The notes beneath the pieces were generated by a model. The model did no database searches and was not told the origin of the DNA. It saw only the letters and a program-made list of their open reading frames with translations. This document shows, piece after piece, positions 1 to 4,605 of a DNA stretch of 4,605 bases; the first letter of the stretch is position 1; every line of letters starts with the position of its first letter. The stretch comes from a virus (Duplodnaviria; Heunggongvirae; Uroviricota; Caudoviricetes). The stretch lies in the IMG/VR virus record IMGVR_UViG_2579778778_000001; one strand, given 5' to 3'. Position numbers and translations under genes: made by a program.

Positions 1-1997
1 CGGCAAAGAAATCCGAAACTGCAGCGGCATCATCGAAGAACGCGGCGAAAACCTCAGAAACGAATGCAGCTAACAGCGCACAGGCGGCAGCGACCTCACA
101 GACTGCATCGGCAAACTCCGCGACAGCAGCCAAAAAATCAGAAACCAACGCGAAAAACAGTGAGACAGCCGCAAAGACGAGCGAAACCAACGCAAAGTCC
201 AGCCAGACGGCAGCGAAAACCAGCGAAACGAATGCTAAAGCCAGTGAAACTGCGGCAAAAAACAGCCAGGTTGCAGCAGCCCAAAGCGAGAGCGCGGCAG
301 CCGGTTCTGCGACTTCAGCAGCTGGATCAGCAACTGCTGCGGCTAACAGCCAGAAAGCTGCGAAGACGAGTGAAACTAACGCAAAGTCCAGCCAGACGGC
401 AGCGAAGACCAGCGAAACGAATGCCAAAGCCAGTGAAACTGCGGCGAAAAGCAGTCAGGATGCAGCGGCTCAAAGCGAGAGTGCCGCAGCCAGTTCTGCA
501 AGCGCGGCGGCTGCTTCTGCCACTGCATCAGCTAACAGTCAAAAAGCAGCAAAAACCAGTGAAACCAACGCAAAGGTGAGCGAAACAGCGGCTGCGAACT
601 CAGCGAAAGCATCGGCAGCAAGCCAGACGGCAGCTAAAGCAAGCGAAGATGCAGCCAGAGAGTACGCAAGCCAGGCTGCGGAGCCGTATAAATATGTCTT
701 ACAGCCGCTGCCTGATGTGTGGATACCATTTAACGATTCGCTGGATATGATTACGGGCTTTTCGCCGTCATATAAAAAAATTGTTATTGGTGACGATGAA
801 ATAACGATGCCTGGCGACAAGATTGTTAAGTTTAAACGTGCATCGAAAGCAACCTATATTAACAAATCTGGTGTGCTGACAGAGGCTGCCATTGACGAGC
901 CACGATTTGAACGTGATGGCCTGCTTATTGAGGGGCAAAGAACAAACTACATGCTCAATTCGGAAAGCCCTGCCAGTTGGGGGCGATCGTCAAATATGGA
1001 TGTGCCCGAAACAGGGACGGATAATTTTGGTTTTACCTATGGAAAGTTTGTCTGCAACGATTCTCTGATTGGGCAAACCTCAGCCATTAATATGGCATCA
1101 ATTGCTGCAACAAAGTCAGTTGATGTCTCAGGCGATAATAAACACGTGACAACCTCATGTCGTTTTAAAACAGAACTGCAGGTAAGGTTGCGTATCCGGT
1201 TTGATAAATATGACGGTAGCGCAACAACTTTTCTTGGTGATGCGTATATTGATACACAAACGCTTGAAATTAATATGACAGGCGGTGCTGCCTCAAGGAT
1301 TACAGCGAGAGTCAGAAAGGACGAAGCTACCGGATGGATTTTTGCAGAGGCAACAATTCAGGCAATTGATGGGGAGTTAAAAATAGGCTCTCAGATACAG
1401 TATTCTCCTAAGCAGAGCGGGGCAACCGTATCTGGTGACTATATTTATCTGGCCACCCCACAAGTAGAAGATGGGCCTTGTGTATCATCTTTTATTATAT
1501 CAGGAGCGACGGCGGCGACCCGCGCAAGCGATATAGTTACAGTTCCAATTAAGAATAATCTTTATAATCTTCCTTTTACGGTTCTTTGTGAGGTACATAA
1601 GAACTGGTATAAAACGCCAAATGCAGCGCCACGTGTTTTTGATACCGGCGGTCATCAAACCGGAGCGGCTATTATTCTTGGCTTCGGTCGTTCAACAGAT
1701 TACGACGGATTTCCTTATTGCGATATTGGAGGAGCTAACAGACGGGTAAACGAAAACGCATCGCTTGAAAAAATGGTTATGGGGATGCGTGTAAAGTCAG
1801 AGCAGTCTACGTGCTCAGTAAGTAACGGGCATATATCCAGCGAAACAAAAACCACATGGTCCTGTATTCAGAACACCGCAATTATCCGTATTGGAGGCCA
1901 GACTACAGCCGGGTTACGTCATTTATTTGGTCATGTCAGGAATTTCAGAATATGGCACAAGGCATTGACTGATGCTCAGGTGGGGGAGTCAATCTAA
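1..1997 (+). CDS. stf: Side tail fibre protein, lambda Stf-like, 5'-partial (first full codon at nt 3; stop TAA 1995-1997). Repeat-rich Ala/Ser/Thr/Lys shaft, then a C-terminal putative receptor-binding domain with a LamG/ConA-lectin-like terminal motif.
   Basis: The frame of track ORF 576..1997 is open without stops back to nt 3. Translation of 3-660 gives repeats such as AKTSETNAKSSQTAAKTSETNAKASETAAK, which match from memory the AKTSETNA-type repeats of the lambda Stf N-terminal shaft. The track start at 576 is an internal GTG, not the true start. The C-terminus ends ...GLRHLFGHVRNFRIWHKALTDAQVGESI, resembling the terminal strand motif of LamG/ConA-like jelly-roll domains. It is followed by a coupled downstream gene (TAATG overlap). 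Confidence 0.85.
   Translation, partial: AKKSETAAASSKNAAKTSETNAANSAQAAATSQTASANSATAAKKSETNAKNSETAAKTSETNAKSSQTAAKTSETNAKASETAAKNSQVAAAQSESAAAGSATSAAGSATAAANSQKAAKTSETNAKSSQTAAKTSETNAKASETAAKSSQDAAAQSESAAASSASAAAASATASANSQKAAKTSETNAKVSETAAANSAKASAASQTAAKASEDAAREYASQAAEPYKYVLQPLPDVWIPFNDSLDMITGFSPSYKKIVIGDDEITMPGDKIVKFKRASKATYINKSGVLTEAAIDEPRFERDGLLIEGQRTNYMLNSESPASWGRSSNMDVPETGTDNFGFTYGKFVCNDSLIGQTSAINMASIAATKSVDVSGDNKHVTTSCRFKTELQVRLRIRFDKYDGSATTFLGDAYIDTQTLEINMTGGAASRITARVRKDEATGWIFAEATIQAIDGELKIGSQIQYSPKQSGATVSGDYIYLATPQVEDGPCVSSFIISGATAATRASDIVTVPIKNNLYNLPFTVLCEVHKNWYKTPNAAPRVFDTGGHQTGAAIILGFGRSTDYDGFPYCDIGGANRRVNENASLEKMVMGMRVKSEQSTCSVSNGHISSETKTTWSCIQNTAIIRIGGQTTAGLRHLFGHVRNFRIWHKALTDAQVGESI
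171..548 (+). repeat. In-frame tandem duplication of a 189-bp (63-codon) unit inside the stf shaft (copy 1 171-359, copy 2 360-548), with degenerate partial copies on both sides and a ~14-15 codon sub-periodicity.
   Basis: Direct comparison: gcaaagacgagcgaaaccaacgcaaagtccagccagacggcagcg at 171 versus gcgaagacgagtgaaactaacgcaaagtccagccagacggcagcg at 360 (offset exactly 189). The first ~100 nt of each copy are near-identical and the remainder more diverged. Protein units are AKTSETNAKSSQTAAKTSETNAKASETAAKNSQVAAAQSESAAAGSATSAAGSATAAANSQKA and AKTSETNAKSSQTAAKTSETNAKASETAAKSSQDAAAQSESAAASSASAAAASATASANSQKA. Confidence 0.85.
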
Positions 1998-2278
1998 TGA
2001 AAGATTTAACACTCAAATTTGAAGACAGGGCCGACTTTTCGGCCTTTATGGAGAGTATTGGCTATTATGATGACGAGTCGATGCAGGATGATATTCTTAT
2101 CGACGTGATAGGTAACGTGTACAAAGAAACCGGAGAACTGACTGAAGATGGCGAACCGGTATGTGTTAAGGAAGACGGATATTTTGTAAACGTGCGCATC
2201 ATTAATGATTCGCAAATATCGTCATTATTCGATGAATACGTGGTTGCTGTTGAGCATCAACTTCGTGGCTGGATGTGA
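1997..2278 (+). CDS. Hypothetical small acidic protein (93 aa), function unknown; candidate fibre chaperone or adaptor.
   Basis: ATG at 1997 overlaps the stf stop (TAATG). GGGGGAG Shine-Dalgarno at 1983-1989, 7 nt upstream. Uninterrupted ORF to TGA 2276-2278. Asp/Glu-rich, no hydrophobic segment. Low GC like the flanking genes. I do not recognise a family. Confidence 0.7.
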   Translation: MKDLTLKFEDRADFSAFMESIGYYDDESMQDDILIDVIGNVYKETGELTEDGEPVCVKEDGYFVNVRIINDSQISSLFDEYVVAVEHQLRGWM

Positions 2279-2287
2279 GGAAGAAAA

Positions 2288-3328
2288 ATGGCTACATCGA
2301 CAGTAATTCCTGATGACATCAAAACGCTAAAATCCGACGTTAGCAAATTAAAAAACGATCAAGGAAGCTACGCAACAAAATCTTATGTAGACAATAAAAC
2401 AACATGGAATGGTTATTGCAATGTAATCTATGATCAAAAAACATTGCCAACAACTGGAACTATATTCAGCGGTAAGCTGCATTTGTCAAATAAGACTGGT
2501 GAAACGGAAAACGCTTATAGTGACATATATACCAGAAAAAATATTGATGGTACTAAAGATACAATGACGAGGATCGTCACACATAACGGGACAAAAGGTA
2601 TCTTTTGGGACTTTAGTGATCTTTACGGAGGAACTTTAATTTTTCCAGGCAGTGATGGTTACCTTAAGATGGGGAACTGTCTCATGTCGTATGGTGTGCG
2701 GGGAAGTAACGCGCTTATTAAGTTTGATAATACAGACTCATTGCAGATCAAATATGCTAATCACGGGTCGACCATGACACTAAACACGCAAGGTACGGCG
2801 TATTCTGGTGTGTCGACGTTATTATGGGGAAATTCCAGCCGTCCTGTTGTTTATGAAGTCGGTGTTGATGGTGGCGCTTATATGTTCTATGCGCAGAAAA
2901 ATACCGATAACACCTATATGTTAAGCGTTAATGGTGCATGTCATGCCACCGCATTTAACCAGCATTCCGACCGGGATCTGAAAGACAACATTCAGGTGAT
3001 CGATAATGCAACCGACCGCATCCGTAAAATGAACGGCTATACATACACGCTTAAAGAAAACGGTATGCCCTATGCTGGTGTCATTGCACAGGAAGCTCTG
3101 GAAGCAATCCCAGAAGTTGTAGGTTCCGCAATGAAATATCAGGACGGTGCGAGCGGATCGGAAGGTGAAGAAGGTGAACGTTATTACACAGTAGATTATT
3201 CTGGTGTTACTGGCTTGCTTGTTCAGGTAGCCAGAGAGTCAGACGACAGAATAACAGCACTGGAAGAAGAAAACGCAGAATTAAGACAAAGATTATCTGT
3301 AATTGAGGCGGCGCTTGCGTCTAAATAA
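2288..3328 (+). CDS. Short tail fibre or tailspike-like protein (346 aa) with a C-terminal peptidase S74-type intramolecular chaperone auto-processing domain.
   Basis: GAGGAAG Shine-Dalgarno at 2277-2283, then ATG 2288. The C-terminal ~120 aa (from nt ~2966) carry the S74/endosialidase-chaperone hallmarks: Ser227 and Lys232 in NQH-SDRDLKDNI (Ser/Lys spaced i and i+5, as in the endosialidase CTD), then GYTYTLKENG, GVIAQEALEAIPEVV, YYTVDYSGVTGLLVQVARE and a terminal coiled-coil-like ITALEEENAELRQRLSVIEAALASK. The N-terminal ~226 aa are Gly/Thr/Asn/Tyr/Ser-rich and beta-like, typical of fibre tips. Confidence 0.85.
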   Translation: MATSTVIPDDIKTLKSDVSKLKNDQGSYATKSYVDNKTTWNGYCNVIYDQKTLPTTGTIFSGKLHLSNKTGETENAYSDIYTRKNIDGTKDTMTRIVTHNGTKGIFWDFSDLYGGTLIFPGSDGYLKMGNCLMSYGVRGSNALIKFDNTDSLQIKYANHGSTMTLNTQGTAYSGVSTLLWGNSSRPVVYEVGVDGGAYMFYAQKNTDNTYMLSVNGACHATAFNQHSDRDLKDNIQVIDNATDRIRKMNGYTYTLKENGMPYAGVIAQEALEAIPEVVGSAMKYQDGASGSEGEEGERYYTVDYSGVTGLLVQVARESDDRITALEEENAELRQRLSVIEAALASK

Positions 3329-3331
3329 TAT
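3303..3331 (+). promoter_or_regulatory. Candidate sigma70-like promoter inside the 3' end of the fibre gene: TTGAGG (3303-3308), 17-bp spacer, TAATAT (3326-3331).
   Basis: Pattern match only. The -35 is 4/6 and the -10 is 4/6 to consensus with ideal 17-bp spacing. A start near 3338-3340 would fall inside the 5' arm of the downstream hairpin. Confidence 0.2.
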
Positions 3332-3334
3332 TAA

Positions 3335-3357
3335 GGGGCCGAGCGCCCCGTTTTATT
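3335..3357 (+). terminator. Rho-independent terminator candidate: GGGGC (3335-3339), loop CGAGC, GCCCC (3345-3349), then G and TTTTATT (3351-3357).
   Basis: A perfect 5-bp all-GC stem followed immediately by a T-rich tract, starting 7 nt after the stop of the 2288..3328 CDS. The stem is short, so strength is uncertain. Confidence 0.55.
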
Positions 3358-3370
3358 GGGTAGGATGAAA

Positions 3371-3664
3371 ATGGATATAACACCTTTCCTTCATGCGCTT
3401 TGTGCTGTGGCTGCGCAGCTACTGATTGGTCTTTTTACCGGGAACTGGGCTTACGGGGCGATAGCCGGTTGTACGTTCTTCATTGCGCGTGAACACACCC
3501 AGGCAGAATATCGCTGGATCGAAATGTTCGGGCATGGCAAGCGAATGAATATGCCGTGGTGGGGCGGTTTTGATACACGTGCATGGGATGTGGCAAGCCT
3601 GATGGATTTTGCTGTGCCGGTGGTGGCGTGTCTGCTGGTCTGGCTGTTGGTTAATCGTGGGTGA
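3371..3664 (+). CDS. Small predicted inner-membrane protein (~98 aa from ATG 3371; alternative ATG 3365; track TTG 3356), two hydrophobic segments, function unknown.
   Basis: GGTAGGA Shine-Dalgarno-like at 3359-3365, 5 nt before ATG 3371. Hydrophobic stretches ALCAVAAQLLIGLFTGNWAYGAIAGCTFFIA and VASLMDFAVPVVACLLVWLLV flank a Trp/Gly-rich loop (MPWWGGFDTRAWDV). No lipobox or cleavable signal peptide evident. GC is visibly higher (~53% in a sampled line) than genes 2-3. Stop TGA 3662-3664. Confidence 0.65.
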   Translation: MDITPFLHALCAVAAQLLIGLFTGNWAYGAIAGCTFFIAREHTQAEYRWIEMFGHGKRMNMPWWGGFDTRAWDVASLMDFAVPVVACLLVWLLVNRG

Positions 3665-3674
3665 AAAAAGGTGA

Positions 3675-3803
3675 GCTGTATATGCAACGGAGGAAGAAAC
3701 CCCGTTGCTGGAAGCCTGGAAAAAGTATCGGATGCTGCTGAACCGTGTTGATACATCAACTGCACCTGATATTGAGTGGCCTACGAACCCTGTCAGGGAG
3801 TAA
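3675..3803 (+). pseudogene. tfa: 3' remnant (~41 codons) of a tail fibre assembly gene (lambda Tfa family); no start codon and no N-terminal part.
   Basis: The frame open from 3675 to TAA 3801-3803 translates to [42 protein letters not shown]. From memory this closely matches the C-terminus of lambda Tfa and E. coli prophage Tfa proteins (...[30 protein letters not shown]...). An in-frame TGA lies immediately upstream at 3672-3674, only 8 nt after the stop of the membrane protein gene. Confidence 0.65.
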
Positions 3804-3811
3804 TCATTGGG

Positions 3812-3881
3812 ATTATGCCGCAGCACGTCTTAAGCAAGACCATTATGCCGCAGAAACGTTGTATGCAATAACGTTCTGCGG
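3812..3881. repeat. Intergenic repeat cluster: 12-bp direct repeat ATTATGCCGCAG at 3812-3823 and 3842-3853, the second forming an imperfect inverted repeat GCCGCAGAAACGTT (3847-3860) / AACGTTCTGCGG (3870-3881) around a 9-nt spacer.
   Basis: Read directly from the sequence. The arms are complementary apart from a 1-nt bulge. No flanking T-tract on either strand, so not a classical terminator. Confidence 0.5.
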
Positions 3882-3888
3882 TTGGCTG

Positions 3889-3908
3889 ATGCACTTTCGA
3901 GAGTGCAT
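3889..3908. promoter_or_regulatory. Near-perfect 20-bp palindrome ATGCACTTTCGAGAGTGCAT (18/20 symmetric); possible protein-binding site or hairpin.
   Basis: Reverse complement is ATGCACTCTCGAAAGTGCAT, so two mismatches. It lies in the 380-bp non-coding gap between the tfa remnant and the convergent permease gene. Confidence 0.35.
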
Positions 3909-4045: not shown

Positions 4046-4605
4046 CTAATTGGGTGATGACAAATCCTGTGTATGGGTGTTTCCCTTTGTGCGTGCGTTG
4101 ATGCTGGTAACGGTGAACGTCATGATGAACACAACCGCGAATAAGACGACAATCGTCGGAGCTGGTGCACTGTCGATAAAAAAGGACAACCAGACACCAG
4201 TCATTGACACTATTACCGATATGCCAATCGCCAGTAGGAGCGCAATATGAAAGCGTTGTGTCAGGAGTACCGCAATGGCGCCAGGCGCAATGAGCAGAGA
4301 AATGGAGAGAATGATACCTACCGCTTTCAGCGTCGCCACAATGGTCAGAGAGACCATGCACAGCAGCCCATAATGCAGACATCTCGTATGCAAACCGCTT
4401 ACCTGCGCCTGTTGATAATCAAAGCTGAACAGCAAAAAATCCCGCCATTTTACGCTAATAACAAGTGTAACCAGCCCGGCAATAATCACCGTCTGGATTA
4501 TATCGCCGATGGTTACCCCGAGCATGTCGCCGAAAAGAATATGGTCAAGATGTACGTCTGGTTTGACTGCAATATACAAGATCAGACCTGCGGCAAACAT
4601 GCCAG
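4046..4605 (-). CDS. ABC-3 family (ZnuB/MntB/SitD-type) metal ABC transporter permease, C-terminal ~185 aa; the 5' end of the gene lies beyond the window. Possibly a sitD-like Mn/Fe permease.
   Basis: Minus-strand ORF open to the window edge, stop TAG (revcomp of 4046-4048). The translation is multi-TM and aligns by eye with the C-terminal half of E. coli ZnuB as I recall it, including the LFGD-L-V motif (here DHILFGDMLGVTIGD) and the following helices. Assignment within the family is from context, not sequence. Confidence 0.8.
   Translation of the reverse strand, partial: GMFAAGLILYIAVKPDVHLDHILFGDMLGVTIGDIIQTVIIAGLVTLVISVKWRDFLLFSFDYQQAQVSGLHTRCLHYGLLCMVSLTIVATLKAVGIILSISLLIAPGAIAVLLTQRFHIALLLAIGISVIVSMTGVWLSFFIDSAPAPTIVVLFAVVFIMTFTVTSINARTKGNTHTQDLSSPN

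Follow-up and report, generated by a model that had tools for sequence, protein, structure and literature searches.

Several phages encode proteins near their receptor-binding genes that protect against re-adsorption or superinfection; among these, Cor of phi80 and N15 and Llp of T5 are outer-membrane lipoproteins specific for FhuA. At the inner membrane, the small prophage-encoded proteins P22 SieA and DicB reportedly block DNA entry, and T4 Imm, P22 SieA and HK97 gp15 (83, 164 and 62 aa, respectively) are all small phage inner-membrane proteins that are not part of the virion and act alone. P22 sieA has its own promoter and lies on the opposite strand, and the moron HK97 gp15 carries a terminator of its own. 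Two further accessory loci lie in comparable slots: P2 fun(Z), encoding a protein of 528 aa on the opposite strand between G (tfa) and FI, and P22 gtrABC, on the opposite strand between tailspike and int with its own promoter and terminator. Finally, the class I holins, including lambda S and P22 gp13, are late-expressed proteins of about 100 aa with three hydrophobic helices.

The gene that we compared with these systems, hereafter the target, lies in a stretch of 4605 bp (the window, i.e., the whole of the DNA analyzed), which forms the distal part of the tail region in a lambdoid E. coli prophage resembling phage 21 and is present at full length and 100% identity in many complete E. coli chromosomes. 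In order, the window contains:

1 to 1997, plus strand: 3' part of stf (side tail fibre), its frame open at the left end of the window.
1997 to 2278, plus strand: acidic 93-aa ORF of phrog_1361 (E 2.5e-46), function not assigned.
2288 to 3328, plus strand: second tail fibre of 346 aa with a C-terminal intramolecular chaperone domain (Peptidase_S74, E 6.3e-14; phrog_4563 tail fiber, E 7e-209).
3335 to 3356, plus strand: terminator-like hairpin, GGGGC-CGAGC-GCCCC, with a T-run (dG -10.1 kcal/mol).
3361 to 3365, plus strand: weak Shine-Dalgarno-like TAGGA, putatively assigned here, 5 nt before ATG 3371.
3371 to 3664, plus strand: the target gene, encoding a predicted three-helix inner-membrane protein of 97 aa (phrog_1443; based on the ORF, homologs, dN/dS and AlphaFold).
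3675 to 3803, plus strand: 3' remnant of tfa (tail fibre assembly; Caudo_TAP, E 1.5e-13 for 3705 to 3800).
4046 to 4605, minus strand: 3' part of sitD (iron/manganese ABC transporter permease), from phage 21 and RefSeq annotation.

The first-pass annotation placed the target right after the fibre genes, and this position is correct: stf ends at 1997 and is followed by the 93-aa ORF, the start of which overlaps the stf stop by 1 nt; the 346-aa fibre then extends to 3328 and the target begins at 3371. In phage 21, the equivalent of the 93-aa ORF (CPT_21_23) directly precedes the target gene, and the 346-aa fibre, which that phage lacks, is an optional low-GC cassette located between the two.

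The ORF ending at 3664 has three candidate in-frame starts (ATG 3371, ATG 3365 and TTG 3356). ATG 3371, which yields a protein of 97 aa, is favoured as the probable start because alignments of the homologs begin with 'MD' and because the phage 21 annotation agrees. Using 85 E. coli-type copies, which represent 40 distinct nucleotide sequences and 19 proteins, we determined a dN/dS of 0.11 for the target frame versus 1.66 for the frame of an overlapping antisense ORF of 135 aa. The target is a genuine coding gene under purifying selection. Antisense ORFs of 135 aa and 104 aa were also considered as genes and were rejected, the 135-aa frame being the one tested.

The target protein matches phrog_1443 over its full length (E 2.8e-58, residues 1–96 on positions 1–96 of the 97-position profile), a profile that was also matched by all 51 of the 51 distant members submitted to it. 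There were 453 homologs in the 90% database, none of them informatively named, and 428 clusters in the 50% library, nearly all of which are stand-alone proteins of roughly 60–146 aa; the exhaustive profile search covered 1.84 billion cluster representatives. The only name found in any source was 'Ybl63', which some members carry in UniRef. Copies from Aeromonas, Comamonas, Leclercia and Citrobacter are about 60% identical to the target, and 1,900 of the 5,426 complete E. coli genomes (35%) carry the gene, in one to seven copies (median 2). Among 200 representatives sharing less than 80% identity, twelve positions are conserved in at least 90% of sequences (H8, R40, E41, Q44, A45, E46, R48, I50, R58, W72, D79 and P83), and an NMPWWGGFD motif is also strongly conserved. 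Conservation is concentrated at one end of the helices and in the loop described below.

No significant match to the target was obtained in Pfam, NCBIfam or PADLOC, and a profile search of PDB sequences returned no matches; no fold match was found. A weak similarity to the Pfam PhoR N-terminal family (E 0.066 for the target; 4 of 51 members, with a best E of 0.0032) stayed under the cut-off and is only a resemblance of a transmembrane hairpin followed by a Trp-rich segment. Likewise, hhalign comparisons with T4 Imm, Sp and gp40, with P22 SieA, SieB, GtrA and holin, with HK97 gp15 and with P2 Fun(Z) all gave probabilities below 1%, and literature searches on phage 21/sitABCD/tail fiber, lambdoid exclusion, ECOR13, Ybl63 and OL657228 retrieved no functional data. 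We conclude that phrog_1443 is a genuine family of common, strongly conserved and uncharacterised phage and bacterial membrane proteins. In kind, the target is a phage accessory membrane protein, with no homology to the characterised examples. The suggestion that it could represent a new type is borne out to this extent: it belongs to no characterised family, and a role in exclusion or at the envelope would make it a factor of a new type.

The target had been described as occupying its own terminator-delimited position, a description that did not survive closer analysis. The only terminator near the target is the upstream one (3335–3356), and between 3664 and sitD at 4046 no terminator-like site was found on either strand, the sole structure being a 10-nt palindrome at 3889–3908. 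The 346-aa fibre and the terminator form a cassette that 37 of the 86 E. coli-type loci contain. Phage 21 is devoid of both; only 12 nt separate its 93-aa ORF from its copy of the target, and AAGGAGG serves as the ribosome-binding site where the window has TAGGA. This comparison shows that the terminator belongs to the 3' end of the optional fibre cassette and is not owned by the target. In the 14 nt between the end of the T-run (3356) and ATG 3371, which would offer no room for a promoter, a consensus scan, the scope of which is canonical promoters, found no promoter-like site, and the number of promoter-like sites in the whole window (7, compared to 7.7 expected) is at chance level.

On the other side of the target, a tfa remnant is found in 57 of the 86 E. 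coli-type loci, and 21 of the other 29 end at a contig edge. Since this remnant begins about 10 nt past the target stop, the arrangement suggests that an older stf-tfa module gave way to a receptor-binding cassette in which the target moves along as the final gene, the tfa remnant probably being the scar of this exchange. Base composition had also been cited as a peculiarity of the target. A difference from the fibre genes does exist (GC of 0.51–0.545 for the target versus 0.345–0.46 over 2201–3300), but the target itself matches the 51% average of the phage 21 genome, and it is therefore the low-GC fibre cassette that is the outlier.

In elements of the sipho-, myo- and podovirus types, homologs occur in a similar position after the receptor-binding gene, the gaps being -4 to +16 nt. 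The siphovirus phage 21 has stf, the 93-aa ORF and then the homolog (+12 nt); a Comamonas lambda-like prophage has a giant GpJ, a 72-aa ORF and the homolog; and an enterobacterial prophage has a homolog that comes after GpJ, a fibre and small ORFs and overlaps the preceding ORF by 7 nt. In an Aeromonas P2-like prophage, the first base of the homolog is the final base of an S74 fibre gene (-1), and in the P2-like Halomonas phage phiHAP-1 it has a 4-nt overlap with the tfa stop, the sheath gene FI coming next. The homolog of the P22-like JEP4 overlaps the tailspike stop by 4 nt, with int next. A Desulfovibrio prophage carries it between a tailspike and another tail protein, and in a Halomonas prophage its neighbours are fibre genes on one side and an internal virion protein on the other. 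The slot after the receptor-binding gene, last or near-last in the cassette, is systematic across morphotypes. The receptor-binding proteins beside it come from many families that are unrelated to one another. No conserved small partner ORF was found upstream of the homologs, the 93-aa ORF being confined to E. coli-type loci. Exceptions to the slot are true members in Aeromonas phages of about 235 kb, which lie after a helicase/terminase gene and away from tail genes, and a member among small ORFs in a 44-kb Aeromonas phage. The overlap or abutment with late genes, together with the position in the structural cluster, points to late co-expression and not to lysogen-specific expression.

The phiHAP-1 and JEP4 copies occupy the very slots of P2 fun(Z) and P22 gtrABC. 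However, Fun(Z) is unrelated to the target, and the homologs, unlike fun(Z) and the gtr genes, are co-oriented with the late gene that they overlap. GtrA is likewise unrelated (hhalign 0.2%), and no gtrB- or gtrC-like neighbours were found in the window, in phage 21, in 2G7b or among the most frequent families at related loci.

Homologs also exist outside any phage context. Members of Sphingomonadales and other Alphaproteobacteria carry the gene on the chromosome, where phage neighbours are absent; no phage genes were found within 7 kb of the stand-alone Sphingomonas copies, which upholds the proposal that the protein has no plausible virion role. The nearest upstream co-directional gene encodes an NAD-dependent DNA ligase in four loci and is another housekeeping gene elsewhere; in complete Sphingomonas chromosomes, the order secDF-bamD-recN-...-ligA is followed by the homolog, starting on the last base of ligA, and in other strains the gene is solitary. 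Annotation of 112 neighbours within 1.7 kb at 29 loci identified LigA, FtsZ, COX1, PrmA, a KdsD-like SIS+CBS protein, UDP-GlcNAc 2-epimerase and outer-membrane proteins among the frequent families, and no phage family among the 25 most frequent. The Sphingomonas-type clade comprises 622 database matches, all of them unnamed. Because the contexts vary and the distribution in Alphaproteobacteria is sporadic, the homolog looks like an accessory gene there too. As the gene exists alone, its function cannot rely on phage structural proteins.

An AlphaFold2 model of the target, computed from a 30-sequence alignment, has a mean pLDDT of 91.9 and contains helices at 4–23, 26–53 and 74–96. It confidently predicts a tight helical hairpin, a compact juxtamembrane loop and a C-terminal transmembrane helix. 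Mean Kyte-Doolittle values are 1.65 for residues 4–23, 1.47 for 26–39 and 2.84 for 80–94, and -1.26 for the polar segment 40–73, a loop of 34 residues that is nearly invariant. The gene had been taken to encode a protein with two transmembrane segments; the assignment to the membrane stands, while the predicted arrangement is one of three helices, namely the hairpin and a single transmembrane helix. The protein had also been said to lack a lipobox, which is literally incorrect, as a lipobox-like tetrad, I31-A32-G33-C34, is present. It is located in the middle of helix 26–53, however, and in a comparison of 263 members the cysteine is found in 136 and the whole tetrad in 52, while the first eight residues have a mean net charge of -0.41. 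On these grounds (a mid-helix tetrad, an ill-conserved cysteine and a negative N-terminus) we rejected the reading as a lipoprotein, in agreement with the original view that the target is not of the Cor/Llp type. It further differs from Cor and Llp in that it is an integral membrane protein conserved irrespective of the type of receptor-binding protein.

Charge counts give conflicting signals on topology. By the positive-inside count, a cytoplasmic N-terminus and loop and an external C-terminus appear favoured, the loop containing 5.2 K/R per sequence versus 1.2 in the hairpin turn and C-tail combined. Against a cytoplasmic loop, (i) net charge is positive in the C-tail and negative in the N-tail; (ii) the charges of the loop are those of conserved functional residues; (iii) the 45-residue loop inserts found in three members are strongly acidic; and (iv) TMHMM, as run by the annotators of phage 21, placed the loop outside. 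A periplasmic loop would fit interference with an incoming phage, and a cytoplasmic loop would fit action on a process at the cytoplasmic face.

The reading that we prefer, tentatively and by analogy, although it falls short of being probable, is that the target is a self-sufficient accessory inner-membrane factor that acts on a conserved envelope component, most plausibly by post-adsorption exclusion. Q-modified RNA polymerase reads through terminators in lambdoid phages; with no promoter of its own found in this prophage, the target would most likely be read together with the late tail-fibre genes by such Q-antiterminated polymerase, and the upstream terminator would insulate it in the lysogen, so that lysogen expression would be low. 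The invariant cluster of H8, R40, E41, Q44, E46, R48, R58, W72 and D79, predicted to lie at one membrane face, might bind or modify an envelope component conserved across Proteobacteria. Incoming phage genomes could then be excluded at the inner membrane after adsorption, whereby the infected cell and its progeny would be protected. Usefulness on its own and a patchy spread, both in E. coli, with its variable copy number, and in Alphaproteobacteria, are typical of protective accessory genes, and SieA and DicB may serve as precedents for a small prophage-encoded protein acting at this site. In being small, non-virion and solitary in action, T4 Imm, P22 SieA and HK97 gp15 all resemble the proposed factor, but they show no homology to the target (hhalign 0.1–0.3%; no PADLOC match) and are without a conserved long loop such as the target has.

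A number of observations argue against exclusion. Similarity to the known exclusion proteins that were compared appears to be absent; a loop placed in the cytoplasm by the positive-inside count would fit poorly with periplasmic interference with DNA entry; and the invariant H/E/D/R pattern resembles a catalytic or ion-binding site as much as it does a protein-binding surface. Moreover, the members in the large Aeromonas phages lie away from tail genes, and a factor that protects the lysogen is not usually coupled so tightly to late genes. The extreme conservation across hosts, whatever the kind of receptor-binding protein next to it, predicts that its target in the host is conserved, which would offer a tractable way into a step of the envelope or of phage DNA entry. 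If the protein blocks infection or remodels the envelope, it would be among the most widespread uncharacterised prophage functions of E. coli and would bear on host range in phage therapy and on prophage-prophage competition. More specifically, and this we regard as doubtful, phrog_1443 might constitute a new minimal membrane fold of about 95 aa, the interfacial H/R/E/Q/D/W cluster of which acts on a universal inner-membrane component of Proteobacteria, and thereby a receptor-independent class of exclusion or envelope-conditioning proteins.

The pattern of invariant residues leads to the first of the other explanations, that the target is a minimal membrane enzyme, with a lipid or a polyprenyl-linked compound as its substrate, or a protein that binds an ion or metal; the composition of the envelope would then be altered without DNA entry being blocked. 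H8, R40, E41, E46, R58 and D79, together with the aromatic residues Y47, W49, W63, W64 and W72, are near-invariant from phage to chromosomal copies, and such near-invariance is commoner in active or ligand sites than in fast-evolving phage-phage interfaces. The three hydrophobic segments are only about 14–15 residues long, with the polar layer as a cap, the gene stands alone in bacteria, and some of its chromosomal neighbours are envelope-related (the KdsD-like SIS+CBS protein, UDP-GlcNAc 2-epimerase, cyclopropane fatty acid synthase and outer-membrane proteins). These neighbour associations are weak (2–4 loci each) and inconsistent, however, no enzyme family or fold was matched, and 97 aa would be very small for an enzyme. 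We consider an enzymatic or ion-binding role rather unlikely.

A classic lysogenic-conversion moron, which the prophage would express from a dedicated promoter to the protection or benefit of the lysogen, is unlikely. It is true that the target lies at the end of the late region beside cargo (sitABCD here, and OmpT and a methyltransferase in 2G7b), that the JEP4 and phiHAP-1 copies share the slots of P22 gtrABC and P2 fun(Z), and that many membrane-protein morons have been reported in these lambda-like phages (PMC6969025). Nonetheless, the first-pass view of the gene as an independent moron is not supported by its transcription signals, with no promoter-like site found between terminator and start, the window as a whole at chance level and no terminator found downstream. 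In most annotated contexts, across three morphotypes, the start overlaps or abuts the preceding late gene, and the GC content of the target is that of the phage average. By contrast, P22 gtrABC and sieA, like P2 fun(Z), are encoded on the opposite strand, and for the P22 genes separate promoters are annotated.

Probable late expression and the overall size of the target are shared with the class I holins, and a role in the lytic cycle as a late factor in membrane physiology or lysis timing (holin-, antiholin- or channel-like) would also be consistent with the presence of members in apparently lytic phages and with a weak match of one distant member to Phage_holin_8 (E 0.0036). We regard this as quite improbable. 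The target resembles holins in its three hydrophobic helices, its length of about 97 aa and its probable expression with the late genes. The charged C-terminal tail of holins is absent (the C-tail has about 8 residues and about one K/R), the invariant loop of 34 residues is unlike holins, and hhalign against P22 gp13 gave a probability of 0.2%. Nor is there an adjacent endolysin or lysis gene; the lysis genes of phage 21-type phages form a cassette of their own, and lysis partners are missing from the chromosomal loci in which a stand-alone copy follows ligA. Were the target a late-cycle factor all the same, it would represent a new conserved accessory function of tail-fibre cassettes.

Adjacency and translational coupling to fibre, spike and Tfa genes in three morphotypes could also indicate a membrane-anchored factor for assembly or maturation of the adjacent fibre or spike. 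This is very improbable, as the target is hyper-conserved while the receptor-binding proteins beside it are unrelated to each other, and as copies exist both on chromosomes with no phage genes near and, in the jumbo Aeromonas phages, away from tail genes. Masking of an outer-membrane receptor in the manner of Cor and Llp, which had been offered as an alternative to exclusion and is suggested by nothing other than the position beside receptor-binding genes, is extremely improbable for a non-lipoprotein predicted to be integral to the inner membrane and conserved whatever the receptor-binding protein or host genus (about 60% identity between E. coli and Comamonas, next to unrelated receptor-binding proteins).

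Two other parts of the window were examined. The sitD gene is convergent prophage cargo and lies outside the target unit; the sit operon is a Fur-regulated moron in phages of this kind (PMC6969025). A functional link between the target and sitABCD was considered and rejected, given that 2G7b, which carries the homolog, has no sit operon and has its OmpT and methyltransferase cargo in that place. At the opposite end of the window, the stf product matches phrog_1419, a tail protein family (E 1.7e-257), and contains a GTA_spike_fiber domain (E 1.2e-13); in RefSeq, it is named 'prophage tail fiber N-terminal domain-containing protein'. A 189-nt tandem repeat is located inside stf, at 156–575.

The ORF encoding the 97-aa predicted inner-membrane protein (phrog_1443) lies between tail fibre genes and convergent prophage cargo, and the features that flank or overlap it in the window are as follows:

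1997-2278, acidic ORF of 93 aa (phrog_1361)
2288-3356, gene for a 346-aa fibre with an S74 chaperone, together with its terminator, an optional low-GC cassette
3419-3826, minus strand, antisense ORF of 135 aa, overlapping the membrane-protein ORF
3451-3765, minus strand, antisense ORF of 104 aa, likewise overlapping it
3675-3803, 3' remnant of the tail fibre assembly gene tfa (42 codons)

The cassette formed by the S74 fibre gene and its terminator, the GC content of which ranges from 0.345 to 0.46, forms an insertion that separates the 93-aa ORF from the membrane-protein ORF; it is present in 37 of the 86 related loci, and phage 21 lacks it. On the other side, the tfa remnant begins about 10 nt past the membrane-protein stop codon, and such a remnant comes after the ORF in 57 of the 86 E. 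coli-type loci. This remnant is probably a recombination scar, the block extending from the fibre to the membrane-protein ORF having taken the place of an stf-tfa module. In the AT-rich spacer that leads from the remnant to sitD, we also observed a perfect-adjacent palindrome of 10+10 nt (3889-3908; ATGCACTTTC/GAGAGTGCAT, 90% complementary).

In phage 2G7b, the cargo past the membrane-protein ORF (L002 5558-9389) consists of a SAM-dependent methyltransferase, an alpha/beta hydrolase and an OmpT-like omptin, while sitABCD is not there. Therefore, the cargo region 3' of this ORF is highly exchangeable.

Upstream of the cassette, the start of the 93-aa ORF coincides with the final base of the stop codon of stf. 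This ORF is found only in E. coli-type loci, no Pfam or NCBIfam matches were obtained for it, and it may encode a fibre chaperone serving the Stf that carries a spike fibre domain. Within stf itself, a tandem repeat with a 189-nt unit (156-575; 2.2 copies, 83% matches), in which 42- and 21-nt periods are nested, has a higher GC content (0.54-0.57) than the remainder of the fibre genes and encodes 'AAKTSETNAK...' repeats rich in Ala, Ser, Thr and Lys.

Homologs of the membrane protein were also detected directly 3' of the NAD-dependent DNA ligase gene in several Sphingomonadales, including the Sphingomonas sp. LY29 chromosome (L171 4977-7294), as well as in a single Burkholderiales MAG (L154). 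The homolog abuts or overlaps the end of ligA in L171, L152, L154 and L155; in L137, an 89-aa ORF separates the two. It closes a secDF-bamD-recN-ligA block, near which no phage genes were found. Three metagenomic family members (P0147, P0200 and P0257) carry, within the conserved loop, an acidic, aromatic insert of about 45 residues that separates 'FGK' from 'R-x-N/K-MPWW', and thus this loop accommodates an additional soluble module.

As to the antisense strand, the 135-aa ORF was ruled out as a gene, since dN/dS in its frame is 1.66.
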